DNA of 59,470 nucleotides from a bacterium (lineage in GTDB: Bacteria > Electryoneota > RPQS01). Below the pieces are notes generated by a model that had not been told where the DNA came from, made no database searches, and saw only the letters and a program-made list of their open reading frames with translations. Position 1 is the stretch's first letter. Each line of letters opens with the position of its first letter. Positions 11,790-59,470 of the stretch are shown here, piece by piece. The DNA lies in the NCBI GenBank assembly GCA_018812265.1, contig JAHJDG010000127.1, positions 1 through 59,470 on the forward strand, written 5' to 3'. A program made the position numbers and the translations under genes.

Positions 11790-11810
11790 GTCCTTTCCGG
11801 ATTGACGAGA

Positions 11811-14800: not shown

Positions 14801-15353
14801 CGGTTTGCTTCAACTTGAGCAGAGCTTGCCGGCGGCGGATTTTATACTTGGCGACACCGGCGGCCTCCTCGAACAACATCCGTCGTCCTTCACCGTCCTC
14901 CCGAAGGATGTCTTCCACCATCTTGAGTTCGAGGATGGTGTATAGATTCGGTCCCATTCCGCTGTCGTGGAGCAGATCGGTGATGTCACGGAGTCTGCAT
15001 ACGTTTCCGTTGAGAAGGTACTCGCTGGTACCGTCGCGAAAAAGACGGCGGGCGATCTCGACCTCGGTGAACGGAGTGTCGAGCAAACCTTGACTATTAT
15101 CCAGAACGATTTTGACCTCGGCGGCGCCGGCCGGCTTGCGAATGACCGTCCCGTTGAAAATAACGTTCTCCATCCGTTCCCCGCGGAGCACGGAGGATCG
15201 CTGCTCGCCAAGCACCCAACGAAGAGCGTCCACGATATTCGACTTGCCGCAACCGTTCGGACCGACAACGGCGGTTACGCCGGGCGCAAAATCCAGAGTC
15301 GTCGTCTTCGCAAACGACTTGAAACCGGTAATGTTGAGGGAAAGCAGTTGCAT
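11811..15353 (-). CDS. smc: Chromosome segregation protein SMC
   Basis: GFKSF, GPNGCGKSN, long coiled coils with a hinge, MSGGEK, FDEVDAPLD; 1180 aa. Confidence 0.97.
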   Translation of the reverse strand: MQLLSLNITGFKSFAKTTTLDFAPGVTAVVGPNGCGKSNIVDALRWVLGEQRSSVLRGERMENVIFNGTVIRKPAGAAEVKIVLDNSQGLLDTPFTEVEIARRLFRDGTSEYLLNGNVCRLRDITDLLHDSGMGPNLYTILELKMVEDILREDGEGRRMLFEEAAGVAKYKIRRRQALLKLKQTEEDLARLADVLTEVERQVASLKRQAMRARRYGEFAAQLRLTETALIYREYRRIKADLRPLEEALSKSSVATDSAQSAIRLEEARLLELRRSETDAEKEATELRRSLSEVVAQISGMEAEEAGLRARDQAARQTIERTRRERQLLADKRSLIEVRLSGVQENLAAVRAELDEAERRVSEAKARLSESERKLRDAETAAAEHSDKVDVLRRRFAQCREETARLAISHAGFVSRKELLAGELVSMSGECEELRTRLAELAVQADAAREKLSAKESETALAQAERTAVEQEIRRLEEVDRQLAGLIEAGRARLRLLATLEEKGPRSHSALRALRTNPIEGALDILGDTIEVEEPYRRALQVALGPAAYYFLVESTQAALIAMAMLRRENAGQTTFLAMDAFRVEPSMAVVPPEGTIGTALSVIKGNTRSSILEHFLGRVILVRDWQSALEYGEWAKTNRCTLITLGGEWIGNTGLLHGGSEESDVPADIGLRKQVEEIEQSLVEAERERETVGARAAAQRDKLDQVKRTLDELSRETAHLLVARTTLREQQVEWETRLTALGEREQSAQTRIETLAREITDCDRQSREAEVAVHAAETELHGIEQIGRAVGDAFSEVQRQAIADRETLHGFERERDAIHHKVELSQAEKERLEQDIHEMEANLRKADESAEQAANELVTFENRLKEIDALSIEKYRLRDERATAVDKMAVRLDEIRGRISEEEQRLRDLRESHAGELEGGRRIETEVARMRGELAAVVNSARAQWNLDLADENFEDIHPDLVEADASPESVQELKQKIERLGPINSLAVEEYATENARLEMMLAQRDDLLKAKRTLEDTIARINEKAQAQFLHTFEAVRGHFQRLFQEFFPAGEADLILSGTDLLEADITIWANPSGKRLKSLSLMSGGEKTMTANALLFALYQVKPSPFCVFDEVDAPLDDANIDRFTRMIRSHSENTQFILVTHNRRTMEIADNLYGVTMEEEGISKLVSVRLLSSVA

Positions 15354-15386
15354 CGTGTCAAGTACTCTCGAAAATCTTCACATCAT

Positions 15387-16814
15387 CTATGCGTCAAGTA
15401 TCTCTCTAAGCAATCCGTTTACAATCTTAGGATTGGCCGATCCCTTGGTGACTTTCATGGCCTCACCCATGAAGAATCCGAGCAGGTTTTTCTTGCCGGA
15501 CTTGTATCGTTTCACTTCCTCAGGATGTCCGGCCAGAATCTGCTCCACAATCCGTCGCAGCTCATCGGTGTCCGTCGTTTGCGCAAGGCCCTCGCCTTCG
15601 ATGATTTCCCGAGCACTGCGACCGTCCTCGAGCATTTTCCAGAATACGTCCTTGGCGGCGGAAAGCGATACGATATCCGCCTGCACCGCTTGGATCAGTT
15701 CCGCCAACGCTGGCGGAGGAAGCGGGAACTCCCTCATCCCCCAGCCCCGTTCGGAGAGTGCGCGTCTCACTTCTCCCTGCATCCATGCCGCCGCTGATCG
15801 CGGATCAATTCCCCGGTGTATCAGCGTCTCAAAGTAGTCTCCCAAACCGCGATCTGACGCCAGCACGGATACCGCTTCCTCATGAAGCTTCAATTCCTCA
15901 CGGTACCGACGGCGACGCGCATCGGGCAGTTCGGGAAGTTGCCGTCGAATCCGCGCCAATTCCTCCTCCGACACCGCAACCTCGACGAGATCCGGCTCGG
16001 GGAAATACCGGTAATCATCCGATCCCTCCTTGCGGCGCATGGGACGAATCTCCTCCAGAGTTTCATCCCACAGTAGGGTCTGACGAATCACCGTTCCGGT
16101 GGAAGTATACAGTTGAATCTGGCGTTCCCGCTCGCTGCGAATTGCCCGCTCAACGGCACGAATGGAATTCAGATTCTTGATCTCCGTGCGCTCGTTTAGG
16201 GATTCCTGGTCCGATGGGCGTACGGAGATGTTCACGTCGCAACGCAGCGATCCCCGCTCCATGTTGCCGTCACAAACGCCGACGAAGCGCAATAGCCCAC
16301 GAATCGTTCCGACGAAGGCGCCTGCCTCAAGTTCCGTGCGGAAATCCGGTTCGGTGACAATCTCCACCAGGGGAACACCGCAGCGGTTCATGTCCACGAT
16401 AGTGGAGCCGTCATCCTGATGAAGAGACTTCCCGGCATCCTCCTCGATGTGGGCGCGGGTGATGCGAATCCGCTTGGTTCCCCACTCCCCCTCGATATCC
16501 ACCCATCCGCCGGTGCTGAACGGCTCGTCGTACTGTGAAATCTGATAGCCCTTGGGAAGATCAGGATAGAAATAATTCTTACGGTCGAATTTGCTGCGCG
16601 GATGAACTGTCGCGTTGAGAGCAAGAGCCAACAGTGCCGCTTGTTCCACTACGTTTCGATTCAGAACCGGTAAGGCTCCCGGCATTCCGAGACAAGTGGG
16701 ACAAGCCAACGTATTGGGCGATTCTCCGTAGCGATTCGGACAGCGGCAGAACGCCTTGGTCTCCGTCAGCAGTTGCGCATGAATCTCCAAACCGACAATC
16801 AGTTCGTAGTTCAC
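15387..16814 (-). CDS. gatB: Asp/Glu-tRNA amidotransferase subunit B
   Basis: GLEIHAQL, FDRKNYFYPDLPKGYQISQ, HIEEDAGK, RCDVNIS, EIKNLNS, YRYFPEPDL. Confidence 0.97.
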   Translation of the reverse strand: MNYELIVGLEIHAQLLTETKAFCRCPNRYGESPNTLACPTCLGMPGALPVLNRNVVEQAALLALALNATVHPRSKFDRKNYFYPDLPKGYQISQYDEPFSTGGWVDIEGEWGTKRIRITRAHIEEDAGKSLHQDDGSTIVDMNRCGVPLVEIVTEPDFRTELEAGAFVGTIRGLLRFVGVCDGNMERGSLRCDVNISVRPSDQESLNERTEIKNLNSIRAVERAIRSERERQIQLYTSTGTVIRQTLLWDETLEEIRPMRRKEGSDDYRYFPEPDLVEVAVSEEELARIRRQLPELPDARRRRYREELKLHEEAVSVLASDRGLGDYFETLIHRGIDPRSAAAWMQGEVRRALSERGWGMREFPLPPPALAELIQAVQADIVSLSAAKDVFWKMLEDGRSAREIIEGEGLAQTTDTDELRRIVEQILAGHPEEVKRYKSGKKNLLGFFMGEAMKVTKGSANPKIVNGLLREILDA

Positions 16815-18232
16815 GACGCAGCCTCAGCCTGTATTTTTTCAACTTCTTTCCCCAACTGAAGGAGAAGCGTTTCCGAGAAATGAGGTCCCATGATCTGCAG
16901 TCCGATGGGCAAACCCGAAGCATCCTTCCCTACGGGAACCGATATCGCGGGAATACCCGCCAGATTCGCCGGAACCGTATACACGTCGGAGAGATACATG
17001 GCCAACGGATCGTCGAGTTTCTCGCCGATCCGGAATGACGTCGTCGGGCTGGTGGGTGTGACGATTACGTCCACCTCGTCAAAGGCTCGCTGAAAGTCTT
17101 CCAGGATCCGTCGGCGGACCTGCTGGGCCTTCCGATAGTACGCATCGAAGTATCCGGCGGACAAGACAAACGTCCCCATCATGATTCGCCGCCGAACCTC
17201 GGGACCGAATCCTTCTCCCCGAGTCAACTCATAGACTTCGGCGAGTTCCTCCGCCTTTTCGTGCCGCCAGCCGTAGCGGGCACCATCGTAGCGCGCGAGA
17301 TTCGAGCTGGCCTCGGCCGTCGCCAGGATATAGTAGACGGGAATTGCATAGCGGGTATGGGGAAGCGAGATCGCCCGCACCGCATGCCCTCGATCTTTCA
17401 ACGAATGGATAGCGGATTCCACCGTGTTTCGAACGTCGGACGAAATCCCCTCGACGAAGTACTCGGATGGAACGCCCATTCGCAGCGAACGATTCAACGG
17501 CGGCAGACCGCCATTGCATTCGGGCGGAGGAACATGCGCGCTGCTCGAATCTCTTGCGTCCACTCCCGCCATCACACAAAGAAGATTAAACAGTCCTTCG
17601 CAGGAGATGGTCAACGCACCGATTTGATCGAGCGACGATCCATAGGCCACCAAACCGTAGCGTGACACTCGGCCATAGGTGGGTTTCAGCCCGGCCACGC
17701 CGCAGAACGAGGCCGGCAGACGAACACTCCCTCCCGTATCGCTACCGAGAGCCGCATGCACAACGCCCGAGGCGACGGCCACGGCGCTCCCGCCCGAGGA
17801 ACCGCCGGCCACGCGCTCGGTATCCAGCGGATTGCGAACGGCGCCGAAGATCGTGTTCTCGGACGAAGAACCCATCCCGAATTCGTCCAAGTTTGTTTTC
17901 CCGATAACGATCGCGCCCGCCTCCTCCAGTCTTTGTACGGCCGTTGCCGAAAAGCGACTCTCGAAATTCTCCAGCATTCGCGACGCGCAAGTAAGACGCA
18001 CGCCCTCGATGGCGATGTTGTCTTTCACGGCAAGAATCCATCCCCCGAGCGGCGGTGATTGTCCGCTGCGAAAAGCGTCACGGACATTGAGCGCAGCGCG
18101 GCGGGCGCGTTCCCGCATAATCGTCACGAACGCCCGCAAGGATTCCTTCTCATGCGCCAGCGATAATGCTCGCTCAACCGCCTCAGGAATCTGATTGGGG
18201 TGGCTCTGGAGATACTCTGGGCTGGGCAGCAT
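16811..18232 (-). CDS. gatA: Asp/Glu-tRNA amidotransferase subunit A
   Basis: Amidase signature [33 protein letters not shown]; start placed at MLPSP (18232). Confidence 0.95.
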
Positions 18233-18470
18233 CGTGAGGTTGTACGGTAACCGAAGTGCGTTCGCTTTCGGTGGATGACGTGGAACTCGGGTGGATCGGC
18301 GGTTTGTCTCCGCCGGCGTTTTCGACTCCCGCCCGAACCTCGTACATTGCCTGACGAAACATGGCGAGGCTCCTGCCGAAAGCGCGGGCGGCATCGGGAA
18401 GACGCTGGCCACCGAACAGCAGCAGAATCACCAACGCGACAATCAGCAGCTCCGACGCACCGATATTCAT
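18183..18470 (-). CDS. tatA: Twin-arginine translocase TatA/TatE subunit
   Basis: [25 protein letters not shown]: TM helix, FG hinge, amphipathic helix; ATGA overlap with the purQ stop. Confidence 0.85.
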
Positions 18471-41380: not shown

Positions 41381-41638
41381 ATGGCGCAACATAAATCTTG
41401 CGAGAAGAGGATGAAGACGGCCGCCGCCGCCCGGCTTCGCAACCGTCGGGATCGCGCACGCTGCCGCGCCGCCGAAAAACACGTTCTGAATGCGACCGAT
41501 ATCGCAGCGGCTCGGACCGCCCTGATGGAAGCGTACGCCTTGATGGACCGCATGGTTCACAAAGGGCTATTCCATCGCAATGCGGCGGCCCGGCGAAAGG
41601 CAGCTTTGGCACACCGCGTAAACCGAATGCAAGCGTAG
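41381..41638 (+). CDS. rpsT: 30S ribosomal protein S20
   Basis: MAQHKSCEKRMKT...RNRR...KGLFHRNAAARRKAAL; 85 aa, basic. Confidence 0.93.
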   Translation: MAQHKSCEKRMKTAAAARLRNRRDRARCRAAEKHVLNATDIAAARTALMEAYALMDRMVHKGLFHRNAAARRKAALAHRVNRMQA

Positions 41639-41748: not shown

Positions 41749-43221
41749 TCAGCGCGGCCGCTCGTAATTGGGAGCTTCCCGCGTGATAATCACGTCATGG
41801 GGATGGCTCTCACGATAACCGGCTGACGAGGCTTGAACAAGCCGCGCGTTCCGGTGCAACTCTGCGATGTCGCGAGCCCCGCAATACCCCATCGCCGCTC
41901 GCAATCCCCCCACGAGTTGGAACACCGTGTCCGCCAGCTTCCCCTTGTAGGGGACGCGGCCTTCGATTCCCTCGGGAACAAACTTGCCACTGGCATCGGC
42001 CGCCGACTGGAAATAACGGTCGGCGCTGCCTTGCTTCATGGCTCCCACCGAACCCATTCCCCGGAACTGCTTGTAGCTGCGGCCCTCCAGAAGAATCATC
42101 TCGCCCGGACTCTCCTCCGTACCCGCGAAGAGGCTGCCGATCATCACCGAATCCGCTCCGGCGGCAATGGCCTTGGCGATGTCGCCCGAATAGCGAATCC
42201 CGCCATCGGCAACGGCCGGAATGCCTCGCTCGCGGGTCGCGCGAATCACCTCAAGAATCGCCGTGACCTGCGGCATTCCCACTCCCGCCACGACCCGGGT
42301 GGTGCAGATCGAACCCGGTCCCACGCCGATTTTCACCGCATCCGCTCCCGCCTTGACAAGTGCCTCCGCCCCATCGGCCGTTACGACGTTGCCGGCGATG
42401 AGGTCCGGGGCCGGGAACTCCGCCCGCAGTCGTTCCACCATGCGGATGACGTTGACGGAGTGTCCGTGAGCCGTATCCACGACCAGAGCGTCCACTCCGG
42501 CTTCCACGAGCGCATGGGCACGATCCATTGTGTCCTCTCGCACTCCCACGGCCGCCGCCGCGCGAAGCCGGCCCTCTTCGTCCTTGCAGGCATTGGGAAA
42601 CAGTGATCGCTTCAGAATGTCCTTGGCCGTGACCAGTCCCGCCAGTCGTCCCTGACCATCTACCAGCAGCAATTTCTCGATCCGATGCTTCTGCAGGATC
42701 CTTTTGGCCGTGTCCAGGTCGGTCCCGAGTGGCGCGGTAATCAAACGATCTCGCGGAGTCATGATGTCGCGCAAGGGCCGAGCATAGTCTTCCTCGAAAC
42801 GCAGGTCGCGGTCGGTCACGATTCCATGCAGTTCTTCGCCGCTGACGACCGGGATCCCGCTGATTCCCTTGTCACGCATTAATTTCAGAGCGTCTCCCAC
42901 TCGGGCATTGGGAGGCAACGTATGCGGCTTGAGAATCGTTGCCGATTCACTCCGCTTGACTCGCGTGACCTCGGCCGCTTGCGCTTCCACCGACATGTTC
43001 TTGTGGACAACACCGATACCGCCTTCGCGGGCCAGCGCAATACACAGAGCCGCCTCGCTGACCGTATCCATGGCCGCCGAAACGAGCGGAATGTTGAGAG
43101 CGATTCGACGGCTGAAGCGAGTGCGAACAATGGCCTGCGAGGGGATCACTTCGGAATAGGCCGGGAGCAGCAGAACGTCGTCAAAGGTGATCCCGAGACA
43201 TTCGATTTTTTCGTGAGCCAA
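41749..43221 (-). CDS. guaB: IMP dehydrogenase
   Basis: [19 protein letters not shown] pair, [28 protein letters not shown]; TTG start. Confidence 0.97.
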
Positions 43222-43254: not shown

Positions 43255-45828
43255 TCAGCCGGCCATGAACGTCGAATAGAAATACTGGAAATAGGTGAGC
43301 GTCCCTAAGCGGTTCTCGAGAACCGCCAGAGCAATCGCGGTCAGCGCACCCGCCAATACCATCACCACCGCGTATACCCGCAATCGAGTCGTCCCGAATC
43401 CCTCGCAGAGTGTGCTCATCAGCCGCAATCCTCCCCACACGATGCCTGCGACAACCGCAATCAAGACGGCGGTCGAGATCGTGGGAATCTGCACGGCTCG
43501 ATGGAAGACCACCGATACCGGAAGCAGGAACAACACGGCTGCGAACGACCAGACGACGTAGTTCCACGCCTGCCGGGTGTCTACGCGGCTCCGCAGAATG
43601 GCGGATACAAACCGAATCAGCATCGCCTTGAGTACGATGAGGAGCGCGAAAAGCACCGAACAATACAAGAGCAACCGAACGGGATCGAGTATGAGTTCAA
43701 TCACCCAAGCCTTGATATGAGCACCCGTCAAAAAGTGAGTGAGAGCATAGTCGAGCGCAAGGTTATCCTTCAAACTGTATAAACCCGCAGCCATCAGGAG
43801 ACCCAGGGATACCGATTCGAGCGCCCACAAGAGCAGCGGCTGTCCGGGGTGCAGGAACCGGCGATGTCGCAGGTCGCTGCAGAATCCGTGCGCATGCAGG
43901 AAGGTGCGCTTGAGATTCTGTCGGAATACGTTATTGCGGCGCAATTCGATGGACAGCGCAAAGATCGCGATGAGTCCGGCCACCGGAAACACCAATGGCG
44001 GAGCGGTTGTTGAACTGATCGGTACCGGAGGAGATGCCTGCCCCGTCCGAACGAGATCCCGGAGCTTGGCATAGGCAAGACGTTCCTGACGATTCCAATC
44101 CACCAATCCGAAAGCGTAGAGATGGGGATCGTCGGCGGCCGGTTGACCGAGAAGCGGACTGCTTCCGTAATAATCACTCAGCGAGTGAATCAGGAAACCG
44201 TCCACGTCGGTCCGGTCTTCAACTGCGAGCACGCTGCGGGTCAGGAACTCCGCTTGATTCACGATGCCGGCGAAAGCCCGTTCGTCCGCACCTTCACTCC
44301 AAGCCGAACGTCGAATGCCGGAGAAGATCACCGGGACAACCGTCGTGGTCAGATCGTTCAACCGATTGCTCTGCGAATCCCACGCCATCAGGATGAAATC
44401 CGCAGGAATCGAACCCGCATTCGCGTTCCGGAGTTCCACGTAGCAGGGCCGTTCGTCAAGCTGTTTCACGTGCTGTCTGAGCCATCCCGCGAAATCCGCC
44501 GTCGCCGGATTTTTCCAATCCAATCCCGTTCCCAAACCCCAGGCCAGAACACAGGGATGCTGTTGAAAGGCTTCGATCTCCTGCGTGACGGCCTGCCCGA
44601 CCAGCGCTCGATAGCTCGCTTGCTCCAGCAGCTTTCCCGGAATCCTGTCCACTCCGGTCTCCACAAGAACGGAAAGCCCCAGCTCGTCGGCAAGATCGAG
44701 CAGTAGCGGCGGCGGAGGATCGGAAGGAACTCGGATCACGTTCATTCCCAGATCACGAATCGAAATCAGATCCTGCCGCAGCCGAGTCGGCGACACGACC
44801 CGCCGTCCGATAGCGTATTCCGGAACGAAATCCACGCCGCGCACATAGAAAGGCTGTCCGTTGAGAAACAACGCGCCCTCGCGCACCTCCACCGTGCGGA
44901 AACCGAACGTCCGCTCAAACCGGTGAAGCGTATCGGAACCTGCGATTAGCGTCGCGGCAAGGGTATAAAGATGCGGCTGTGCCGGCGACCACAGATTCGC
45001 ATGGAAAGGCGGCAGGGTGATGACGGCTTGATAGTCGTTCGCGCGACCCTGTCTCAAGACATCGTTTCGCCCCGATGCAACCGCTTGCCCCATCGAATCG
45101 TACACACTCACAAGAACGAGAACATCGGACTTGCGGCCACTGCTGTCGAGAGTGGTTTTCATCGGTCCATACTGTGCAATCCGTACTTGCGCCGTGCCGC
45201 TGATGACCGACAATTCGCTATTGGATTCCCTCATGAAGCGAGCGTCTTCAATGGACCACGAAGGCACTCCCCGAAGGTAAACGCCCGAGAAGCATCCTCC
45301 ATAGTCCTGCGACTGCAGAAGCTGTCGCCGCACCGGAAACGTCCCTTTGGGCGTCAAATGATGCGTAATCCGCAGCTCGATTTCATTGGTTGTGCCGAAT
45401 CGAAGCTGATCGGAGGCCAGGTCACAGACGAATCCAAGATGAAATCCGGTGAGCGAAGCCACCAGCCGACCGTTGATGCGAACCTCACAGGAATGGCTGA
45501 TTTCCGGCAAGTGAAGCTGGAAATGTAGCGGGCGGAGTGAATCGGCAAGATAGAACGAACGCCGAAAAACCACCGGAGCGGCATCGCCTTCGAAACACCC
45601 CGGAATGAACGCCGATTGCGACTCGTCCTGCTCTCCGCGCTGCAATTCCCACGTGCCGCGCAGATCCAGCACCACTTGATGCGGATTCTCCTGAAGACGG
45701 GGAGTCGGCGGAGCCATCGCTTCCCGCTGATCGTAATACACGAAACCCTCGGCCGGGCGCACGAATACCACCAGCACGAGGGTCAGCAATGTGAGAAACG
45801 GAAAATGAACCTGATTGCGCACACTCAT
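43255..45828 (-). CDS. GH2-fold protein lacking the catalytic glutamates, with about six C-terminal TM helices
   Basis: Signal peptide; GH2 sugar-binding/Ig/TIM architecture (LWSPAQPHLY, FGFRTVEV, LNGQPFYVRG, DELGLSVLVE, HPCVLAWGLG, GLVDWNRQERLAY); hydrophobic C-terminal segments. Confidence 0.8.
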   Translation of the reverse strand: MSVRNQVHFPFLTLLTLVLVVFVRPAEGFVYYDQREAMAPPTPRLQENPHQVVLDLRGTWELQRGEQDESQSAFIPGCFEGDAAPVVFRRSFYLADSLRPLHFQLHLPEISHSCEVRINGRLVASLTGFHLGFVCDLASDQLRFGTTNEIELRITHHLTPKGTFPVRRQLLQSQDYGGCFSGVYLRGVPSWSIEDARFMRESNSELSVISGTAQVRIAQYGPMKTTLDSSGRKSDVLVLVSVYDSMGQAVASGRNDVLRQGRANDYQAVITLPPFHANLWSPAQPHLYTLAATLIAGSDTLHRFERTFGFRTVEVREGALFLNGQPFYVRGVDFVPEYAIGRRVVSPTRLRQDLISIRDLGMNVIRVPSDPPPPLLLDLADELGLSVLVETGVDRIPGKLLEQASYRALVGQAVTQEIEAFQQHPCVLAWGLGTGLDWKNPATADFAGWLRQHVKQLDERPCYVELRNANAGSIPADFILMAWDSQSNRLNDLTTTVVPVIFSGIRRSAWSEGADERAFAGIVNQAEFLTRSVLAVEDRTDVDGFLIHSLSDYYGSSPLLGQPAADDPHLYAFGLVDWNRQERLAYAKLRDLVRTGQASPPVPISSTTAPPLVFPVAGLIAIFALSIELRRNNVFRQNLKRTFLHAHGFCSDLRHRRFLHPGQPLLLWALESVSLGLLMAAGLYSLKDNLALDYALTHFLTGAHIKAWVIELILDPVRLLLYCSVLFALLIVLKAMLIRFVSAILRSRVDTRQAWNYVVWSFAAVLFLLPVSVVFHRAVQIPTISTAVLIAVVAGIVWGGLRLMSTLCEGFGTTRLRVYAVVMVLAGALTAIALAVLENRLGTLTYFQYFYSTFMAG

Positions 45829-45846: not shown

Positions 45847-47010
45847 TCAACCTGCCAGTTCATGATTCTTGGCGACAATCATCAAGCATAAACTCGTACT
45901 CAATTCCAGATCCTTGACGTACACATGCTCGGACGTGGTATGTTCATTCCTCATCCCGCATCCGATTACGACGGCCGGAAGGCCCTTCTCGTTGTACACG
46001 TTGGCGTTCGTGCCGCCTCCGATTGCCATGGGCTGCATGTTCAGCCCCAGTGTCGTCCCCGCCTCTGCCACCAAGCGATAAACGGGGCTGTCAAACGGAA
46101 CACTCATGGCGTCGTACTCGCGACGGATGTCGGCATGGAACTTCGGTGCGATCACCTTGCCGTTCACGGATCGGGTGAATTGAGCGACGGCTTGCTCGAA
46201 ACACTCGGACATGTGTTGGGTCTGCGCTTCGAGAGCGTTCTTGGAATGGCTGCGTGCTTCCGCCGTAGCCGTCAGCTTGTCGGCAACGATGTTCGTGGCG
46301 CGCCCGCCGCTTACCGTGCCGATATTCGCGGTGGATTCCTCGTCGAGGCGACCCAACCGCATGTTTGACACGGCCCGCGCGAACACTTCGATCGCGGACA
46401 CGCCCTTTTCCGGCGCCATTCCCGCATGCGCGGCAATCCCGTCAATCTCGTAGGTCATGCGATTCGCACTTGGCGCACGAAAGACAATCCGATCCAATTC
46501 CTCTCCATCCAGGACGAACGCATACTTCGCCTCAACCGCCGAAAGATCCACATGGTTGGCGCCCAAGAGTCCAATTTCCTCCGATACGTCGAAAATCGCC
46601 TCGACCGGTCCGTGAGGCATGTTGGACTCATGAAGGCAACGAAGTAGTTCCACCACGGCGGCCACTCCCGCCTTGTCGTCCGCACCCAACACGGTTGTGC
46701 CGTCCGATCGAATCACACCGTCCTGAAGCTGTGGTTTGATCCCGATACATGGCATAACGCTATCCAAATGCGCCGAGAACAATACGGCCGGCGCCTTCGA
46801 ATTGCGAGCCGCCATGCGCACGTGCAGGTTTCCGCAGTTGCCGCCGATCTTCTCGCCCGCGTTGTCGCGCCAGTATCGAACTCCCAGCGGACGGAGCAGA
46901 CTCTCCAGATAATCGGCCACGGCGGCCTCCTGCAAGGATGGAGTGTCAATCCGTACCAAATCCATAAACGTGCGAACCAGCCGATCGGAATTCAGTCGTG
47001 GAATGGTCAT
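45847..47010 (-). CDS. M20 family peptidase T-like metallopeptidase
   Basis: SAHLDSV, GADDKAG, SEEIGLLG, GGTNAN, HTTSE. Confidence 0.88.
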   Translation of the reverse strand: MTIPRLNSDRLVRTFMDLVRIDTPSLQEAAVADYLESLLRPLGVRYWRDNAGEKIGGNCGNLHVRMAARNSKAPAVLFSAHLDSVMPCIGIKPQLQDGVIRSDGTTVLGADDKAGVAAVVELLRCLHESNMPHGPVEAIFDVSEEIGLLGANHVDLSAVEAKYAFVLDGEELDRIVFRAPSANRMTYEIDGIAAHAGMAPEKGVSAIEVFARAVSNMRLGRLDEESTANIGTVSGGRATNIVADKLTATAEARSHSKNALEAQTQHMSECFEQAVAQFTRSVNGKVIAPKFHADIRREYDAMSVPFDSPVYRLVAEAGTTLGLNMQPMAIGGGTNANVYNEKGLPAVVIGCGMRNEHTTSEHVYVKDLELSTSLCLMIVAKNHELAG

Positions 47011-48380
47011 GACGATGATGGTCCTTCATTCATTGTGCGTCCGATGACGCCGTTTGGGTGTGGAGCAATGACCTCCACCGAACAAATCATGCCTGCAAAA
47101 CCGTCTGGCATGTCTGCGTACACATCCAAATAGTCTGAAGCGTGTCCGGCGAGCAATCCACCGACGCGCCGGCTCTCAAACAACACGGATTCAATGCAAC
47201 CGATATGTTGTTCCCTGAATCGTCGCCGCAGATCCGCGTCGAGATCCTTCATGATTCGAACTCGCGTGCGAGTCTCGCTTTCCGGCACGGGATCGGGCAG
47301 GCGAAGCGCCGGCGTACCGGGACGCGGACTGTAGGGAAACACGTGCAGGTAGGAAACGGGAGAATCGTCCAGAAACTCTCGAGTGGCTTTAAAACTCCGG
47401 TTTGACTCGCCGGGGAAGCCCACGATGACGTCCGCTCCGAAACCCCACCGATTATGGATACGGGCAGACCGGTCAAAGATCCGTTCGATGTCGCGCACCG
47501 TGTATCGCCGGTTCATGCGACGAAGAATCTCATCGTCGGCAGTTTGCAGCGGCAGATGAAGATGCGGACAAATCACTTCCGACTCGGCCATCACGCGAAG
47601 CAATCGGTCACTGATCGCCCACGGTTCCACGCTGCCGAGCCGCAATCGTCGCAGACCCTCAACTTCGCGAAGCGATTCCAATAGCAGGGACAAGCCGTCG
47701 TTCAGACCGAGATCTCGACCATAAGTGCCGAGCGCCACTCCGGTCAGGACGATCTCCGCAAATCCCTCGCCCACAAGCCGTTGAATCTCCGCAACGGCGT
47801 CCGCAATCGGCAGGCTTCGCCCGCGACCGCGTAATCGCGGGATAATGCAGTACGTGCAACTCTGGGAACAACCGTCCTGAATCTTGAGAAAAGTCCGGGT
47901 TCTCCCCAACAGACTCGTCACGACCGCTGACGGTTCGAATCGAGCGGCCCGATGGACTCCCCCGACGTGAACTCCGGTTGGACCCGCTGTAAGCCCCGGC
48001 GTGACGTAGTCGAGTACGCGACCTTTCTCGCGGTTCCCAATCACTACTCTCACACCGTCCATGGCAGCCAGTGTGTCGGGAGTCCGCTCAGCCATACATC
48101 CCGCCGCCACGATCAGAGCGGTCGGATGTTGCCGACGATACGAGCGCAGAAGTGTTCGTGCTTTTCGTTCCGCGTTGGCGGTGACGGCACACGTGTTGAC
48201 GACGAAGATGTCCGCCTGCGTTGCCCGATCAACGACGTCGTAGCCCGCCGCGCGAAACTGAGCGAGAATCTGTTCGCTCTCGTACTGATTCAACTTGCAG
48301 CCGAGTGTAGCGACCGATGCCGTTCGCGGAGGAGATGGGTTCTCCTCTACGTCACCGAAATGCTCGGATACGGCTTGCAT
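47007..48380 (-). CDS. mtaB: tRNA threonylcarbamoyladenosine methylthiotransferase
   Basis: TLGCKLNQYE, NTCAVT, radical SAM KIQDGCSQSCTYCIIP, DVIVGFPGE, TRAM tail; AAGGAG RBS before ATG 48380. Confidence 0.9.
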   Translation of the reverse strand: MQAVSEHFGDVEENPSPPRTASVATLGCKLNQYESEQILAQFRAAGYDVVDRATQADIFVVNTCAVTANAERKARTLLRSYRRQHPTALIVAAGCMAERTPDTLAAMDGVRVVIGNREKGRVLDYVTPGLTAGPTGVHVGGVHRAARFEPSAVVTSLLGRTRTFLKIQDGCSQSCTYCIIPRLRGRGRSLPIADAVAEIQRLVGEGFAEIVLTGVALGTYGRDLGLNDGLSLLLESLREVEGLRRLRLGSVEPWAISDRLLRVMAESEVICPHLHLPLQTADDEILRRMNRRYTVRDIERIFDRSARIHNRWGFGADVIVGFPGESNRSFKATREFLDDSPVSYLHVFPYSPRPGTPALRLPDPVPESETRTRVRIMKDLDADLRRRFREQHIGCIESVLFESRRVGGLLAGHASDYLDVYADMPDGFAGMICSVEVIAPHPNGVIGRTMNEGPSSS

Positions 48381-48399
48381 GCTCCTTGTGGCGGATCCT

Positions 48400-50295
48400 C
48401 TACTCGCGAGGCTCGCCGCCTTCTTCACCCTCCTCGCCTTTCGTGGGAGATTCTTCAGGGGGAGTTATTTCTTTCCCAGAGGACGGTTGATCCACTGTCG
48501 GCGGCAACGGAGTCGGCGGCTCATCCATGTCGCTGCCGATAATATACTGCTGGTAGGCATCGTCCTCCGGCTCTTCGGCGGCCGACTCCTCCGCCGGCGC
48601 CTGGGCCGCCAAAATGATCTTCTTCGACTCCTTGTCGAACTCAATCACCTCGAGCTGCAATTCCTCACCGACCGAGATCGCTTGCTTGCCGCCGCGAGTA
48701 ACGCGCTTCAGTTGGCTGTTGGGAGCGAAGCCCTCCACGTCCTTCGGCAATTCGACGACCACGCCTTTTTCGAGAACGCGCGCAACTTTGCCGGTGGTTC
48801 GCGTTCCCACCGCATAGAGCTGCGCGAACTCATCCCACGGATTCGCCTGTGCCTGTTTGAGTCCAAGCGCAATGCGACGTTCATTCCGATCGAAACCGAG
48901 GACGACGATCTCGACCTCTTCTCCTTTCTTCAGAATCTCACCGGGGTGACGCACGCGCTTCGTCCACGACAGATCGGAAATGTGAACGAGACCGTCAATG
49001 CCGTCTTCCAGTTCGACGAACGCCCCAAACGGTACGAGATCGCGAACCCGTCCGACGTGGCGCGTTCCCACCGCGTATTTGATTTCGAGGTTCTCCCACG
49101 GATCCGGCTCCACCTGCTTCAGTCCCAAAGAGATCTTGCGATTCTCCTTGTCAATACTGAGGACGACCACGTCAATTTCATCGCCCACCGATAGAAGGGC
49201 CGAGGGATGCTTGATATGCTGAGTCCAGCTCATTTCACTGATGTGAACCAGCCCTTCGAGACCTTTCTCGAGCTCAACGAATGCTCCGTAGCGGGCAATC
49301 GAAACGACGCGCCCATGCACTTTCGCTCCCACCGGATACTTCTCTTCCACTCCTTCCCAGGGATGAGGCTGGAGTTGTTTCAGCCCGATGGAGATGCGCT
49401 GGCGCTCCTTGTCGTAGTCGAGAACCTTGACGGTGATCTTCGAATCGAGTTGAACCAGCTCGGACGGATGACTGACGCGTCCCCAGGAGAGATCGGTGAT
49501 GTGCAGCAAACCGTCCACACCCCCGAGATCAACAAAGACGCCGAAATCGGTGATGTTCTTCACGCTACCGGTCATCACGTCGCCGACCTTGAGCTCGCCG
49601 AGCACCTTCTCGCGGATTCCGGCCAGGCTCTCTTCGACGATCACTTTTCGCGAAACCACGATATTCTTGCGCATATCGTTCAGCTTCACGATCCGAAATT
49701 CCATTTCGTTTCCGACGAGGGCGTCAAAGTCCCGCACCGGATGCACGTCAATCTGTGAACCGGGAAGGAACGCGTCTATCGAGAGGACGTCCACCACGAA
49801 ACCGCCCTTGATGCGACGCATGACCTTGCCGCGGATAATCTCCTGATCGCGATAGATCGCTCCAATGCGCTCCCAAATCTTGAGGAAGTCCGCCTTTCTC
49901 TTGGAAAGGATCAACTGTCCTTCAGCATCTTCCACACGATCAAGATAGACCTCGACGTCATCGCCGACGTTGAACGATTCACCGGGCGCGAATTCCTCAA
50001 TGGCAACCGTGCCCTCGGACTTGAATCCAATGTCAATCGAGATTTCTTTCTCGCCGACGGCGATAATCTTGCCCTTGATGATTTCGCCCTCGCGGAACTC
50101 CATAATCATCTTCTCATAGAGTGCCGCCAAGTCCTGAGTCTCATGGGACTCGGTCTTGCTTTCGGGCAGTTCCTCCGGGCGGACCTTGCGACCGCGAAAA
50201 CGCACTTCTTCGACGATTCTCTGAGGCTCAACGGACGCCGGCACAGGTTCGCCGGCGGGTGTCGGCTCAGGAGATGGGTTTGGGGTTTGATTCAT
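48400..50295 (-). CDS. rpsA: 30S ribosomal protein S1
   Basis: Six S1 repeats (DIGFKSEG, FLPGSQ, FGVFVDLGGVDGLLHITD, GLVHISEMSW); acidic Pro-rich termini. Confidence 0.97.
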   Translation of the reverse strand: MNQTPNPSPEPTPAGEPVPASVEPQRIVEEVRFRGRKVRPEELPESKTESHETQDLAALYEKMIMEFREGEIIKGKIIAVGEKEISIDIGFKSEGTVAIEEFAPGESFNVGDDVEVYLDRVEDAEGQLILSKRKADFLKIWERIGAIYRDQEIIRGKVMRRIKGGFVVDVLSIDAFLPGSQIDVHPVRDFDALVGNEMEFRIVKLNDMRKNIVVSRKVIVEESLAGIREKVLGELKVGDVMTGSVKNITDFGVFVDLGGVDGLLHITDLSWGRVSHPSELVQLDSKITVKVLDYDKERQRISIGLKQLQPHPWEGVEEKYPVGAKVHGRVVSIARYGAFVELEKGLEGLVHISEMSWTQHIKHPSALLSVGDEIDVVVLSIDKENRKISLGLKQVEPDPWENLEIKYAVGTRHVGRVRDLVPFGAFVELEDGIDGLVHISDLSWTKRVRHPGEILKKGEEVEIVVLGFDRNERRIALGLKQAQANPWDEFAQLYAVGTRTTGKVARVLEKGVVVELPKDVEGFAPNSQLKRVTRGGKQAISVGEELQLEVIEFDKESKKIILAAQAPAEESAAEEPEDDAYQQYIIGSDMDEPPTPLPPTVDQPSSGKEITPPEESPTKGEEGEEGGEPRE

Positions 50296-56031: not shown

Positions 56032-57330
56032 CTATTTCATCAGCACAATGGGGTAGGCTCGGCCCCCCCGACCATCATCCAAGATTGCATAATAAGTTCC
56101 GGTTGCCAATGGATTTACTCGATCTCGATCCCACTGCCACCCTACTTCTTGCCGGCCCGTTCCCACAGGTAGGCGTGCCACAATCTGTCCTATGCTGTTA
56201 TATATTAAGATGATAGATGGTTCTGTCAGGCTCGCAGAAAGCCGAAACCTCACGCTGCCATTCGACGGGTTTGGATAGGCCTCACGGATGGCACTTTCAC
56301 GGGCTACGAGGCGAGGTACAACTGGCTGAATCGGACTCTCACCGCCGTAAAGTACCATCTGTCCGGGTCCATCGGAAACCGGATAACGGTTAAAAAGAGC
56401 GCCCGCGTTACTCCGATGTTCGACCTCATCCGTCATCGCGCAAGACACGAAGAACGATCCGTCCGCCAATGCCTCAACGTCGGTGGCGCCACTGCCCACT
56501 CGAATCGGTGACGCCTGATCGTTCAGAACGGTAAGATCGTCGAGCCGATAGCGGTAGACCTCGCCGTGATCTCCCCAACCGCCCGCCGCCAGCAGCGCCT
56601 GCCCGCCGCCGAAACTGATGTTGCTGGGGGATCCTCCGACTTCCACCACCGCTTCCGTCTGCCGATTCCCCAAGTCCACGACGTGAATCTCCCCGCCCAC
56701 CGTTCCGTAGTTTCCCGTGCACACCACGTGCAGACGATCCCATTCGTCCACCGCCGCCGTCTGCGGATTCATTCCCACTCTAAGGCTGTCGAGTAGATGA
56801 AAATCGCCGCGATTATAGATCATCACCACGCCCGGCCCATACTGGCCAGACGGCAAATAGCGCGTGAGACAAACGTACACGCGATCCCCATGAGCGACGA
56901 TTCCCTGGGGAGCGACGCCTACGTAGACATTACCCACAACTTGCCCACTTGATAGTCGGATGAGCAAGACGTTATTCGAAATCCAGTTCGTAACCGCCAG
57001 CGTGTCAGAGTTGAGCGTCGCCGCCGAATGGGGATTCACTCCGCCGGTCGTGGGAATGTCCCGCAGCGTCACATCGGTTTCAGCGTCAATCTCTTGAACG
57101 GTATTGAGCAGGGAATTGGTGACGAACAGACGGCTGCCGTGCGCGATGATATCGTTGCAGCCGTATCCCAGATCGAGCACGTGCGGATTCACCGCGCCCG
57201 TTTCCAAGCGGATTTCGGCCAGGGATTCGTCTCCATATTGCACAACGTACAACCGATCCTGCCCGTCGGCCATCGAGACGATCAGCAGCAGGAAAAGAAG
57301 CGTCCGGTGCAGTCTGATCTCGCAAGTCAT
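56032..57330 (-). CDS. YncE/BtuG-like beta-propeller with T9SS type A CTD
   Basis: ATGA overlap with the TonB receptor stop; signal peptide without a lipobox; propeller repeats (GVAPQGI, GMNPQTA, GGSPSNI, GSGATDV); CTD AYPNPSN...IYNSIGQIV...LATGTYY...IVLMK. Confidence 0.78.
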   Translation of the reverse strand: MTCEIRLHRTLLFLLLIVSMADGQDRLYVVQYGDESLAEIRLETGAVNPHVLDLGYGCNDIIAHGSRLFVTNSLLNTVQEIDAETDVTLRDIPTTGGVNPHSAATLNSDTLAVTNWISNNVLLIRLSSGQVVGNVYVGVAPQGIVAHGDRVYVCLTRYLPSGQYGPGVVMIYNRGDFHLLDSLRVGMNPQTAAVDEWDRLHVVCTGNYGTVGGEIHVVDLGNRQTEAVVEVGGSPSNISFGGGQALLAAGGWGDHGEVYRYRLDDLTVLNDQASPIRVGSGATDVEALADGSFFVSCAMTDEVEHRSNAGALFNRYPVSDGPGQMVLYGGESPIQPVVPRLVARESAIREAYPNPSNGSVRFRLSASLTEPSIILIYNSIGQIVARLPVGTGRQEVGWQWDRDRVNPLATGTYYAILDDGRGGRAYPIVLMK

Positions 57331-59470
57331 GATACCGTCGCGCGAATACCGCCGTACCATTGCCGAAGCGGCATCGGTGCGTGCCGTACGATTCGATAAT
57401 TCGAGTCGAGCGCGTTCTCGCAGCCGACCGTGGATTGAAGCTCGACGGAACCGATTTGGAAAGTATAGGAACTCTGGAGGTCCATTACTTCGTACTTGCT
57501 GAGCCATTTCGAATTCGTTTCAAGGATCGGCCGCGCGGCTACCCAGCGATAGGTGGCGACGACGTGAATGCCTGTATGATCGAATACAAAGCCTGCGCGA
57601 TGAGTTCGCGGAGCACGGTAGGTGAGGTATTTGCCGCCCGTGTTGCGATCATCCGTGTCATCGCGCGCTTCCGTCCAGTTGACGCCCGTGTTCAGGCGAA
57701 ACCTGCCCTGCCAGAGACTCTGCTCAAAGAATAGGTCCAGCGTCTGAATGTGCGCTTGATGGAGATTGAATGGCTTCCAGTAGTTGTCGAAGGTTCGTCG
57801 CCAGACGATCAGGTCCCGCACGCGCTGTTCCGAAGCCGACGCCTCGCAACGGGTGACGTTGGACGTGGCGGTCTCAAACGTGAGCCGCCCCGTCCATTCA
57901 TCCGAGGTCTCCGCCTCAAGATCGGGATTCCCGCGCGTGGCCATGTCATCCAACCAGAACAGCGAATACAACGAGGGCGCGCGATACGATTTGCCCCGCG
58001 AAGCGAATCCGGCGATTCGGTAGGATGGGCGATATTCCGCCGTCAGTCCCACTCGCGGCAGAAGTACGCGATCTTCCCCGAACGTCTCCCATCGCAGACC
58101 GGACTCCAGCACCAGTGAAGAGAAGTTGCTTCTCGTCGCGAGCAATCGCACGTCGGTCTTGCACCAGAGCGCTCCGCTCGCTCGCTCCGCCGTTCCTCCG
58201 GCAATCTGAATACCCGCGAGGCGATCTTCTCCGGCGGAAGCGCCCCCTTGAACCCTCGTTCGCGGCAGTTCGACGAACGCGGAGAATTCGCCGCTCCAAC
58301 GCTGCGACCTCTCATCCGTCCTTAGCACACGGCCATAGCCGTCGTCGTTCGTGTACTCTCGCCGGCTTCGATCATACCCGCCGTTTCCCCGAATCGTTAC
58401 GGAAGAAAAATGACGCACAGCCCGCAACGCAATCGCTTCCTGCTGGCTGCTCTGCCGCGCGCGCGGTGTGAGTTGCGGCGCAAGATAGCCGGGCATGCCG
58501 CGGGCCTGCCGATCGGCCAGACCGGTGAGCTCGACGGATCCGGCCGCACTCGATCCTGTTTGTGCCTTGATTAGGAGCTGATCGCGCGTAACGTCATTGT
58601 TAACTCGATGACAGGTCTGGCCAAGATCGGGCGTAAACGATCCCGTGCCGTCATCCTCCGATATCCGGTACTCGAAATCACCGGGGCCGTTCGTGCGAGC
58701 AAAACTCAGCAAACTCGCGAGTGGGCCGGTTTGACCGGAACCGAAAAAACTCGTCCGCCCGTACGTGGAGTGCATTTCCGCCTCGGCAGAATAGGTGGCA
58801 GTGTTTTGCGGACGCCGAGTCGTGACGTCAATTACACCCCCGATAGCCTCACCGCCGAGTTCGGTCTGACCGCCCCGATAAACCGCCACGTTCTCCACCC
58901 ACTCCAGAGGAACCGACGACAGATCCGCCTCGCCGCTCCCCGCATTTTGAATTCGCCTTCCATCCACTCGCACCAGAACCTGTCCCGGCTGCGATCCGCC
59001 GATACTCGCGGTCACCGGCGATCCGAGAGTCCCGTCGCTCCGCACATCGAGGCCAACCTCCGAATGCAGAAAACCCGCCAAGTCGCGCGCGGAGCTTGTC
59101 TCAATATCACGACGATGAAAGATTCTTGTCGGCGCGGACAATGACAGTCCTTCGACAGTTACCTCGGGTAGTACTGCGGCTAAACGATGGAGTGTCAACA
59201 ACAATTGCAGTTGCTCACCGCTCGCAAGATCGAACGTTGTGTCACGTGAAACACACCGATTCGCCGACACTTCGAGACGATACCTGCCGCACGTCAGTCC
59301 GTCAAACGAGACGCAACCGCCCGCATCCAACGACTGAGCAATGCCTACCGGCCACAACACGGCCGTTCCGCCGGGAGGGACCGCTTGCCGATCACTCGTG
59401 ACGCGAACGAATACCGCGCCGCCCGTCTGTGCCACCGACGACGCCACGAGCAGAAACACCCATAGAAACG
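57327..59470 (-). CDS. TonB-dependent receptor, BtuB (cobalamin)-like; 5' end outside the window
   Basis: Frame open to the edge (..FLWVFLLVASSVAQ). Ig-like N domain, LPEVTV TonB box, plug ASIGGSQPGQVLVRVDG...DLSSVPLEWVENVAVYRGG..GEAIGGVIDVTT, RGNPDLEAETS, C-terminal ENALD..Y...PMPLR. Confidence 0.85.
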   Translation of the reverse strand, partial: FLWVFLLVASSVAQTGGAVFVRVTSDRQAVPPGGTAVLWPVGIAQSLDAGGCVSFDGLTCGRYRLEVSANRCVSRDTTFDLASGEQLQLLLTLHRLAAVLPEVTVEGLSLSAPTRIFHRRDIETSSARDLAGFLHSEVGLDVRSDGTLGSPVTASIGGSQPGQVLVRVDGRRIQNAGSGEADLSSVPLEWVENVAVYRGGQTELGGEAIGGVIDVTTRRPQNTATYSAEAEMHSTYGRTSFFGSGQTGPLASLLSFARTNGPGDFEYRISEDDGTGSFTPDLGQTCHRVNNDVTRDQLLIKAQTGSSAAGSVELTGLADRQARGMPGYLAPQLTPRARQSSQQEAIALRAVRHFSSVTIRGNGGYDRSRREYTNDDGYGRVLRTDERSQRWSGEFSAFVELPRTRVQGGASAGEDRLAGIQIAGGTAERASGALWCKTDVRLLATRSNFSSLVLESGLRWETFGEDRVLLPRVGLTAEYRPSYRIAGFASRGKSYRAPSLYSLFWLDDMATRGNPDLEAETSDEWTGRLTFETATSNVTRCEASASEQRVRDLIVWRRTFDNYWKPFNLHQAHIQTLDLFFEQSLWQGRFRLNTGVNWTEARDDTDDRNTGGKYLTYRAPRTHRAGFVFDHTGIHVVATYRWVAARPILETNSKWLSKYEVMDLQSSYTFQIGSVELQSTVGCENALDSNYRIVRHAPMPLRQWYGGIRATVS
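59238..59253. other. parS centromere-like site inside the TonB receptor gene
   Basis: TGTGTCACGTGAAACA, a 15/16 match to the parS palindrome TGTTTCACGTGAAACA. Confidence 0.7.

Follow-up and report, generated by a model that had tools for sequence, protein, structure and literature searches.

A predicted bacterial pseudo-glycosidase that joins a GH2-like ectodomain to a Yip1-like membrane domain

The window analysed here is a whole stretch of 59,470 nucleotides (nt) of bacterial DNA, contig JAHJDG010000127.1. On its minus strand, an open reading frame (ORF) listed at 43255..45828 opens with ATG, stays intact in frame and encodes a protein of 857 amino acids (aa). In the predicted product, a signal peptide is followed by an ectodomain with the fold of glycoside hydrolase family 2 (GH2), without its catalytic residues, and by a C-terminal transmembrane (TM) part that resembles proteins of the Yip1 family. 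The gene and its parts are as follows.

43255..45828, minus strand: whole gene, stop codon included, encoding the GH2-like/Yip1-like fusion; full-length orthologs at 46-63% identity
45745..45828, minus strand: signal peptide, residues 1-28; hydrophobic core, then a conserved P-A-E-G with predicted cleavage before the following F (hydropathy segment 5-32)
45259..45687, minus strand: domain 1, residues ~48-190, GH2 N-terminal jelly-roll ("sugar-binding") domain; hhalign match from residue 48, weak Pfam Glyco_hydro_2_N2 match
44896..45258, minus strand: domain 2, residues ~191-311, GH2 immunoglobulin-like beta-sandwich with W-S-P-x-x-P-x-L-Y at its end; Pfam PF00703, E 3.1e-8, residues 228-311
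44035..44895, minus strand: domain 3, residues ~312-598, GH2 (beta/alpha)8 TIM barrel without the catalytic machinery; Pfam PF02836, eight strands modelled, hhalign match ending at residue 599
44821..44835, minus strand: V-D-F-V-P, residues 332-336, end of beta1; stands for G-x-N-R-H, His lost
44716..44733, minus strand: R-V-P-S-D-P, residues 366-371, end of beta2; stands for R-x-x-H-Y-P, Arg kept, His-Tyr lost
44524..44541, minus strand: W-G-L-G-T-G, residues 430-435, end of beta4; stands for W-x-x-G-N-E, acid/base Glu replaced by Gly and Asn by Thr
44311..44334, minus strand: P-V-I-F-S-G-I-R, residues 499-506, beta7; stands for P-x-x-x-x-E-[YFW]-G, nucleophile Glu replaced by Gly504
44173..44199, minus strand: G-F-L-I-H-S-L-S-D, residues 544-552, beta8; canonical Trp replaced by His548, Asp552 invariant in the family and in canonical GH2
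43936..43992, minus strand: TM1, residues 613-631, predicted linker helix from periplasm to cytoplasm; from hydropathy, and helix 8-26 of the TM-only model
43846..43935, minus strand: predicted cytoplasmic juxtamembrane loop, residues 632-661 (NNVFRQNLKRTFLHAHGFCSDLRHRRFLHP), rich in Arg and Lys; the best-conserved segment of the protein
43306..43845, minus strand: TM2-TM6, residues 662-841, five-helix Yip1-like bundle and then a short C-terminal helix; from the TM-only model

Both sequence and fold place the ectodomain among GH2 proteins, with a jelly-roll, an immunoglobulin-like domain and a (beta/alpha)8 barrel in succession. Pfam Glyco_hydro_2_C (PF02836) matches residues 313-491 above its cut-off (E 5.5e-12, the first 188 of 302 profile positions), as does Glyco_hydro_2 (PF00703), and a phmmer search of the PDB retrieved GH2 enzymes, with 6d1p as the best match (E 5e-19). 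An alignment of 11 full-length orthologs (A1), compared by hhalign with 25 canonical GH2 sequences, gave a probability of 100 and an E-value of 3.3e-52 over 522 columns. The full-length AlphaFold2 (AF2) model has a mean predicted local distance difference test score (pLDDT) of 74.9, with most of the ectodomain above 80 except for a few loops; domain 1 is modelled as all-beta, mostly above 80, and the barrel has its eight strands. In a Foldseek search of the PDB, this model matched GH2 beta-glucuronidases of ~600 residues (E 1e-34, target-normalised TM-score of ~0.72). The NCBIfam models for beta-galactosidases and beta-glucuronidases all match far below their cut-offs (for example, 87 versus 900 bits). 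An initial annotation of this gene, made from the DNA letters, had described a full GH2 architecture; this holds for the minimal three-domain core of the beta-glucuronidase type, and domains 4 and 5 of LacZ are absent.

GH2 catalysis needs two glutamates, which enzymes of clan GH-A carry at the C-terminal ends of beta4 and beta7. In the phmmer alignments to PDB entries 6d1p and 6d7j, the WGLGTGLDW of the window protein lies opposite WGLGNENDW, and T434/G435 are paired with the Asn-Glu of the acid/base motif by phmmer, by MAFFT alignment with 39 canonical GH2 sequences and by hhalign. The latter two methods also place G504 opposite the nucleophile Glu. In the AF2 model, residues 435 and 504 fall at the C-terminal ends of beta4 (427-431) and beta7 (500-505), respectively. 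At these columns the canonical sequences of both comparison sets all keep His-Tyr, Asn-Glu and the nucleophile Glu, with the sole exception of P0107, which is poorly aligned at the beta7 nucleophile strand. By contrast, all 11 orthologs of the window protein have P[FS][GD] for the His-Tyr motif, [STA]x for Asn-Glu, and Gly, Arg or Gln for the nucleophile. The initial annotation had reported the replacement of these motifs and had asked whether orthologs also lack both glutamates, and they do in 11 of 11 cases. WGLGTG (44524-44541) and RVPSDP (44716-44733) were located by their coordinates, and the replacement at PVIFSGIR is likewise real, except that this motif occupies 44311-44334, about 6 nt below the range of 44317-44340 given earlier.

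The loss extends to the residues that coordinate the sugar in the -1 subsite, namely the beta1 His, the beta2 His-Tyr, the Asn before the acid/base, the beta8 Trp and the Asp of a domain-1 loop. The hhalign comparison pairs S369/D370 with His-Tyr, V335 with the His of N-R-H, H548 with the beta8 Trp, and D552 with an invariant Asp that is kept, while the domain-1 Asp before Y-G-G is Gln or Asn in the orthologs. The counterparts of the replaced positions in Escherichia coli LacZ are presumably H357, H391, N460/E461, E537, W568 and D201.

Among 119 full-length members of the wider family, whose ectodomains have a median identity of 22% to that of the window protein, the acid/base column (S, D, T, R, G and others) and the nucleophile column (S, G, R, D, K and others) are both hypervariable. 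Asn-Glu is kept in only 2 of the 119, and in none of them together with the nucleophile Glu. P0149 is the single member with Glu at the nucleophile column, and its acid/base position reads Arg-Asn rather than Asn-Glu. P0168, the most GH2-like member (TIM barrel E 4e-30), keeps Asn-Glu and has Lys at the nucleophile position, where its IIGKYG lies opposite VTEFG of 6ncy. The initial annotation had allowed that shifted acidic residues might occupy the catalytic positions; column conservation across the 119 members revealed no new conserved acid pair. That the encoded protein is not a hydrolase, as had been proposed, is well supported by these alignments.

Loss of catalysis has not been accompanied by loss of constraint. 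In the orthologs, the mean column conservation is 0.65 for the ectodomain versus 0.70 for the TM domain, and identity ranges over 44-61% and 48-63%, respectively. The ectodomain positions conserved across the 119 members (W60, P76, G178, W280, P285, Y288, N323, N363, R366, D381, G384, G544, D552 and G574) are fold-defining and common to canonical GH2; W280, P285 and Y288, for instance, belong to the motif at the end of domain 2. With its fold kept, its catalytic residues lost and its sequence under purifying constraint, the ectodomain has the marks of a pseudo-glycosidase.

The initial annotation counted about six C-terminal TM helices, and six were recovered both by hydropathy and in an AF2 model of the TM region alone, which was built from 26 diverse family sequences (pLDDT 93.1, predicted TM-score 0.87). 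In this model, TM1 is followed by two short amphipathic helices, TM2, two short periplasmic helices, TM3 to TM6 and a terminal helix. The loop after TM1 (NNVFRQNLKRTFLHAHGFCSDLRHRRFLHP) holds six Arg/Lys residues, in agreement with the positive-inside rule. Its mean column conservation among orthologs is 0.91 versus 0.65 for the ectodomain, and R641, F649 and R657 are conserved in 98-100% of the 119 members; within TM2-TM6, W760, W798 and R802 are nearly invariant. At the other end of the protein, A26, E27 and G28 are at least 90% conserved among orthologs and probably mark the cleavage site. A lipoprotein signal was considered and rejected: some orthologs have a Cys before P-A-E-G without a lipobox, and the window protein has Arg there. 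Because the conserved signal peptide is combined with a positive-inside loop after TM1, the predicted topology places the GH2 domain in the periplasm, as initially suggested, and the loop in the cytoplasm.

The relationship to Yip1 emerges through homologous family members, as the window protein itself has no Pfam Yip1 match. P0353 and P0314, which are tied to it through the TM profile search described below, score 31.5 and 30.5 bits against Pfam Yip1 (PF04893; gathering cut-off 28.6, profile positions 3-172 of 173), and NCBI labels such distant members "YIP1 family protein". The predicted TM2-TM6 arrangement, from hydropathy and the TM-only model, matches the Yip1 topology of five TM helices after a cytoplasmic segment. 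DUF4271 (PF14093) reached only 20.8 bits in the hydrophobic C-terminal part of the window protein versus a cut-off of 29.7 (positions 81-168 of 206), and a Foldseek search of the PDB with the TM-only model found no similar solved structure (best E 1.3).

When 1.84 billion representative proteins, with clusters at 50% identity, were searched with the TM-domain profile, it matched 499 representative clusters at E<=1e-3, 437 of them at E<=1e-10. Most matches are 800-950 aa long with the TM domain at the C-terminus, and the short ones are fragments that still start with the end of the GH2 barrel; no free-standing TM domain and no other ectodomain was found among the matches in these 499 clusters. 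The GH2-like plus TM architecture is common to essentially all clusters, and the fusion is obligatory. A TM-only alignment (A5) used in a word-indexed homolog search returned 4 matches, and was probably swamped by low-complexity TM words. Database labels of the members are inconsistent, and include beta-galactosidase, GH2 TIM barrel-domain containing protein, YIP1 family protein and hypothetical.

A scan of a genome collection with A1 found close orthologs at 8 loci, one of them labelled candidate division KSB1 and the others labelled "bacterium" or assigned to doubtfully labelled TPA bins. The clusters of distant members carry the names KSB1, Calditrichota/Caldithrix, Cloacimonadota, "Bacteroidota bacterium", Ignavibacteria and Kapabacteria, and one contig is labelled Delongbacteria; all labelled carriers are metagenome-assembled genomes (MAGs). 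The profiles and alignments show that the fold, the fusion and the loss of catalytic residues are conserved over hundreds of clusters, whose lineages include KSB1, Calditrichota, Ignavibacteria, Kapabacteria and uncultured relatives of these. The window sequence is present in biofilm and groundwater metagenomes, and a search for RNA runs returned DNA metagenomes only, from these two sources.

The GH2-like/Yip1 gene lies in a same-strand run of housekeeping genes, and the order of the five genes is kept in the 8 genome loci of the close lineage. Its neighbours in the window are the following.

48400-50295, minus strand: rpsA
47007-48428, minus strand: MiaB/MtaB-like radical-SAM gene; overlaps rpsA by 29 nt
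45847-47010, minus strand: M20 peptidase gene; overlaps the MiaB-like gene by 4 nt and ends 19 nt upstream of the GH2-like/Yip1 ORF
41749-43221, minus strand: guaB; starts 34 nt downstream of the GH2-like/Yip1 ORF

More widely, nearly all genes in the 23 kb from 33000 to 56000 are read from the minus strand and either overlap or lie very close together, and their order is kept in 8 related genomes; the exception is the gene for ribosomal protein S20 (41381-41638, plus strand). In other lineages the gene has different neighbours.

Window lineage, L016 and L020: guaB, rpsT and Sir2 downstream
L009/L015, L011 and L013: smc directly downstream; in L017, one and two small ORFs in between
L012 and L021: after a TPR-ExbB-ExbD-ExbD cluster and before rpiB
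L014: before purC and ftsW/rodA
L018 and L019: divergent from sprA, before hrcA-grpE-dnaJ

In L012 (3983-6864) and L021 (3997-6868), which carry Delongbacteria/Calditrichota labels, the gene is preceded by a 1630-aa TPR protein, two small ORFs, ExbB, two ExbD and a 345-aa ORF. The latter has no Pfam matches and is possibly TonB-like, and a SpoIID/SPOR gene lies ~1 kb downstream of the GH2-like/Yip1 gene. Neither SusC/D, nor sugar transporters, nor other glycosidases were seen in any context examined. The context is always housekeeping and never a sugar-utilisation locus, the opposite of catabolic GH2 genes in these phyla.

Two further loci in the window concern the envelope and secretion of the source organism. 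A TonB-dependent receptor gene at the window edge (57327-59459, minus strand; Plug domain, E 2e-12) supports a diderm envelope. A 1301-aa protein encoded at 4071-7976 (minus strand) has a gingipain-type Peptidase_C25 domain (E 3e-77); together with sprA beside the Ignavibacteria members, it suggests organisms with type IX secretion.

We consider it probable that the gene encodes a constitutively used cell-envelope protein, in which the pseudo-enzyme ectodomain provides a Yip1 membrane unit with a module for binding or scaffolding. A Sec-type signal peptide would export the three-domain, beta-glucuronidase-like GH2 fold to the periplasm, and the linker helix TM1 would return the chain to the cytoplasm, where the Arg/Lys-rich loop would lead into the five-helix Yip1-type bundle. 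The ectodomain may be kept as a rigid binding or scaffolding module, whose partner could be an envelope polymer or a periplasmic protein. The bundle and the cytoplasmic loop would then form the functional core, which might be a receptor, part of a transporter or an organiser of the membrane. Such an arrangement would parallel 4F2hc/rBAT and Klotho, whose ectodomains are dead glycosidases. The Yip1-type TM part, the family of hundreds of clusters and the housekeeping context all go beyond the initial annotation.

Several points weigh against this interpretation. Any ligand or partner is hypothetical, and the neighbourhoods vary by lineage and offer no consistent functional partner. The role assigned to the membrane module is a conjecture, because no prokaryotic Yip1 protein has a known function (PMC6682643). 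Close orthologs keep R366, D381, H424, E465, H548 and D552 invariant, which makes these residues, as judged by conservation, candidates for an unconventional active site. Finally, the barrel rim, the former active-site face, is no better conserved than the rest of the ectodomain: the catalytic and opposite faces score 0.64 versus 0.65 in the family and 0.48 versus 0.45 in the canonical control, so that the comparison is weakly discriminating at best. With that reservation, a conserved pocket ligand is not indicated, because the rim is not extra-conserved.

The last point also bears on the function put forward in the initial annotation, that of a periplasmic lectin-like glycan sensor or chaperone, in which a glycan would be held uncleaved in the old pocket, possibly for protein O-glycosylation. 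We regard this as unlikely. The GH2 fold is retained together with the "sugar-binding" jelly-roll, R366 and D552 are still present in the pocket, and some pocket-side loops are well conserved in orthologs (0.90 for residues 367-373, 0.74 for 549-583 and 0.85 for the domain-1 loop 158-170). However, the canonical residues that hold the sugar in the -1 subsite (two His, Asn, Trp and Asp) are all replaced, which weakens the case for a glycan sensor, and their columns are hypervariable family-wide. A simple model of binding the old substrate without cutting it is disfavoured because the sugar-coordinating residues are lost and the rim is not extra-conserved.

The proposed tie to O-glycosylation is not supported. 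D-[ST]-[AILVMT] is the O-glycosylation sequon of the Bacteroidota type, and the ORF has three copies of it.

45537-45545, minus strand: DSL, residues 96-98; conserved in 11 of 11 orthologs
45093-45101, minus strand: DSM, residues 244-246; conserved in 9 of 11 orthologs
44928-44936, minus strand: DTL, residues 299-301; conserved in 11 of 11 orthologs

Conserved as they are among close orthologs, these sequons are not enriched (3 observed versus 1.65 expected, p = 0.22), and they are not conserved in the wider family. Genes of the PMT type and for a glycosyltransferase lie upstream at one distant locus, and a GT2 gene lies nearby at another. Co-occurrence with glycosylation genes is limited to these 2 of ~9 lineage contexts; most contexts are without them, and they are not conserved neighbours.

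The repeated position next to smc raises a second alternative. The protein would be a cell-cycle or envelope-growth factor functionally coupled to SMC, and its ancestral co-transcription with smc would connect chromosome organisation or division with the state of the periplasm or wall. In its favour, smc lies downstream in three independent distant lineages (L009/L015, L011 and L013/L017), at gaps of 1 to ~260 nt, and genes for FtsW/RodA, SpoIID/SPOR and SLT proteins occur near the family gene in other lineages. In P0240, a representative-library protein of 845 aa, the gene call leads from the GH2 barrel, across the Yip1-like domain, into the N-terminal ATPase head of SMC (SMC_N, E 3e-36, residues 602-739). 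Either the two adjacent genes are genuinely fused there, or the call is an artefact of read-through or of a frameshift. L015 has the order gatB-tpiA-gene-smc, and in the window a related run lies 28 kb from the GH2-like/Yip1 gene.

10368-18412, minus strand, in a row: gatA (16811-18412), gatB (15387-16814), smc (11811-15353) and a GWxTD-domain gene (10368-11789)

In the window lineage the gene seems to have moved away from smc, because several distant lineages have it directly upstream of smc. Against a functional coupling, the linkage is broken in the window lineage and in at least 4 others with neither gene lost, adjacency among housekeeping genes can be an inherited gene order, and no mechanism connects a periplasmic domain with SMC. 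We find this alternative improbable.

A third alternative, a cryptic enzyme whose barrel catalyses glycoside cleavage or other chemistry with relocated residues, we consider very improbable. The ectodomain is clearly under constraint, and the polar barrel residues R366, D381, H424, E465, D477, H548, D552 and E582 are invariant in close orthologs. Of these candidates, only D552 is invariant in the 119 members, and it is equally so in canonical GH2; conservation of E465, H548 and H424 does not extend to the wider family, there is no conserved acid pair elsewhere in the barrel, and some orthologs have Asn or Lys instead of D437, which neighbours the old acid/base position. The idea of a decaying relic or annotation artefact, in which a degenerating GH2 gene was fused by chance to a membrane ORF, could appeal to the missing catalytic residues and the NCBIfam scores far below cut-off but is already refuted by the conservation data. 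The 857-aa reading frame is unbroken, the architecture recurs in full-length orthologs and in hundreds of clusters, and the ectodomain, which AF2 models confidently, equals the TM domain in its degree of conservation; we give this idea practically no weight.

The preferred interpretation, an envelope protein with a binding or scaffolding ectodomain, can be taken further. The protein might be an envelope receptor that defines the KSB1-Calditrichota-Ignavibacteria lineages and is possibly essential to them; its ectodomain would read the state of the wall or periplasm and signal through the Yip1 bundle and the invariant Arg-rich loop, and its gene would once have been co-transcribed with smc. We offer this extension as a speculation that is doubtful as it stands. 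If true, this would be the first prokaryotic Yip1 protein with an assigned function, and the Klotho/4F2hc principle would have a counterpart in bacteria.

Membrane pseudo-glycosidases are known mainly from animals (Klotho, 4F2hc/rBAT), and the present proteins would add a large family from bacteria that follows this principle with the GH2 fold. To our knowledge, no other context has a prokaryotic Yip1 domain in permanent fusion with a large extracytoplasmic one. The present proteins therefore bear on whether Yip1 proteins are receptors, transporters or membrane organisers, a question raised previously (PMC6682643). For annotation, the consequence is more immediate. The family members almost certainly hydrolyse nothing, and those annotated as glycosidases inflate the counts of carbohydrate-active enzymes (CAZymes) and the predictions of carbohydrate degradation for KSB1, Calditrichota and Ignavibacteria MAGs. 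Our full-text literature searches found no paper on a GH2-like/Yip1 architecture and none on any GH2 pseudoenzyme.

Compared with known systems, the ectodomain is homologous to the three-domain core of GH2 beta-glucuronidases and beta-galactosidases (6d1p, 6d7j, 6ld0, 6xxw and 5z18; E. coli LacZ and GusA). The window protein keeps WSPxxPxLY, LNG, GxNxxR, DELGL and the invariant Asp after beta8. Unlike these enzymes, it lacks both catalytic glutamates together with the -1 subsite residues named above, it is anchored by a C-terminal six-helix domain, and it has a housekeeping rather than a catabolic context.

With the Yip1 family (PF04893, which covers eukaryotic YIPF proteins, bacterial DUF1282/YohC and the Yip1 proteins of bacteriocin clusters), the window protein likewise shares five TM helices after a cytoplasmic segment. 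It differs in adding an exported domain of ~600 aa and an extra TM helix, and itself falls below the Yip1 threshold. We know of no Rab-type partner in bacteria. YIPF proteins, as well as GH2 proteins, form oligomers. As for prokaryotic Yip1 proteins in general (PMC6682643), no function is known for the window protein.

A beta-galactosidase-like domain is also fused to a multi-pass TM part in the PADLOC model PDLC01990 ("CARF_m8--CARF_Beta-galactosidase_LolE_TM"). The window protein matches the beta-galactosidase part of this model (E 5.6e-16) in its GH2 region only (residues 224-445), and it lacks the CARF domain, the LolE-type TM domain and the defence context. A defence role was rejected, the PADLOC match being generic and accompanied by neither a CARF domain nor a defence context. 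The match indicates that fusions of a beta-galactosidase-like domain to a multi-pass TM part occur in at least one other protein type, which is CRISPR-associated.

In 4F2hc, the ectodomain has no catalytic residues, and its role is to assist a multi-pass membrane partner, not to hydrolyse sugars. 4F2hc (CD98hc) and rBAT resemble the window protein in carrying a glycosidase fold, here of GH13, as a membrane-anchored ectodomain (PMC8537225). They differ in belonging to another GH family, in being eukaryotic, and in having a single-pass anchor that is disulfide-linked to a separate transporter, whereas the window protein is a covalent multi-pass fusion. Alpha- and beta-Klotho are membrane-anchored pseudo-glycosidases with GH1-like domains that lack a catalytic Glu, and act as a non-enzymatic scaffold or co-receptor (PMC11696049). 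Klotho is GH1 rather than GH2, has a single-pass anchor, comes from animals and has a known ligand (FGF23/FGFR). The likenesses to 4F2hc/rBAT and to Klotho are ones of analogy, not of homology. The class of membrane-anchored pseudo-glycosidases is itself already known, and what appears to be new is a bacterial representative, in which a GH2 fold is fused to Yip1.

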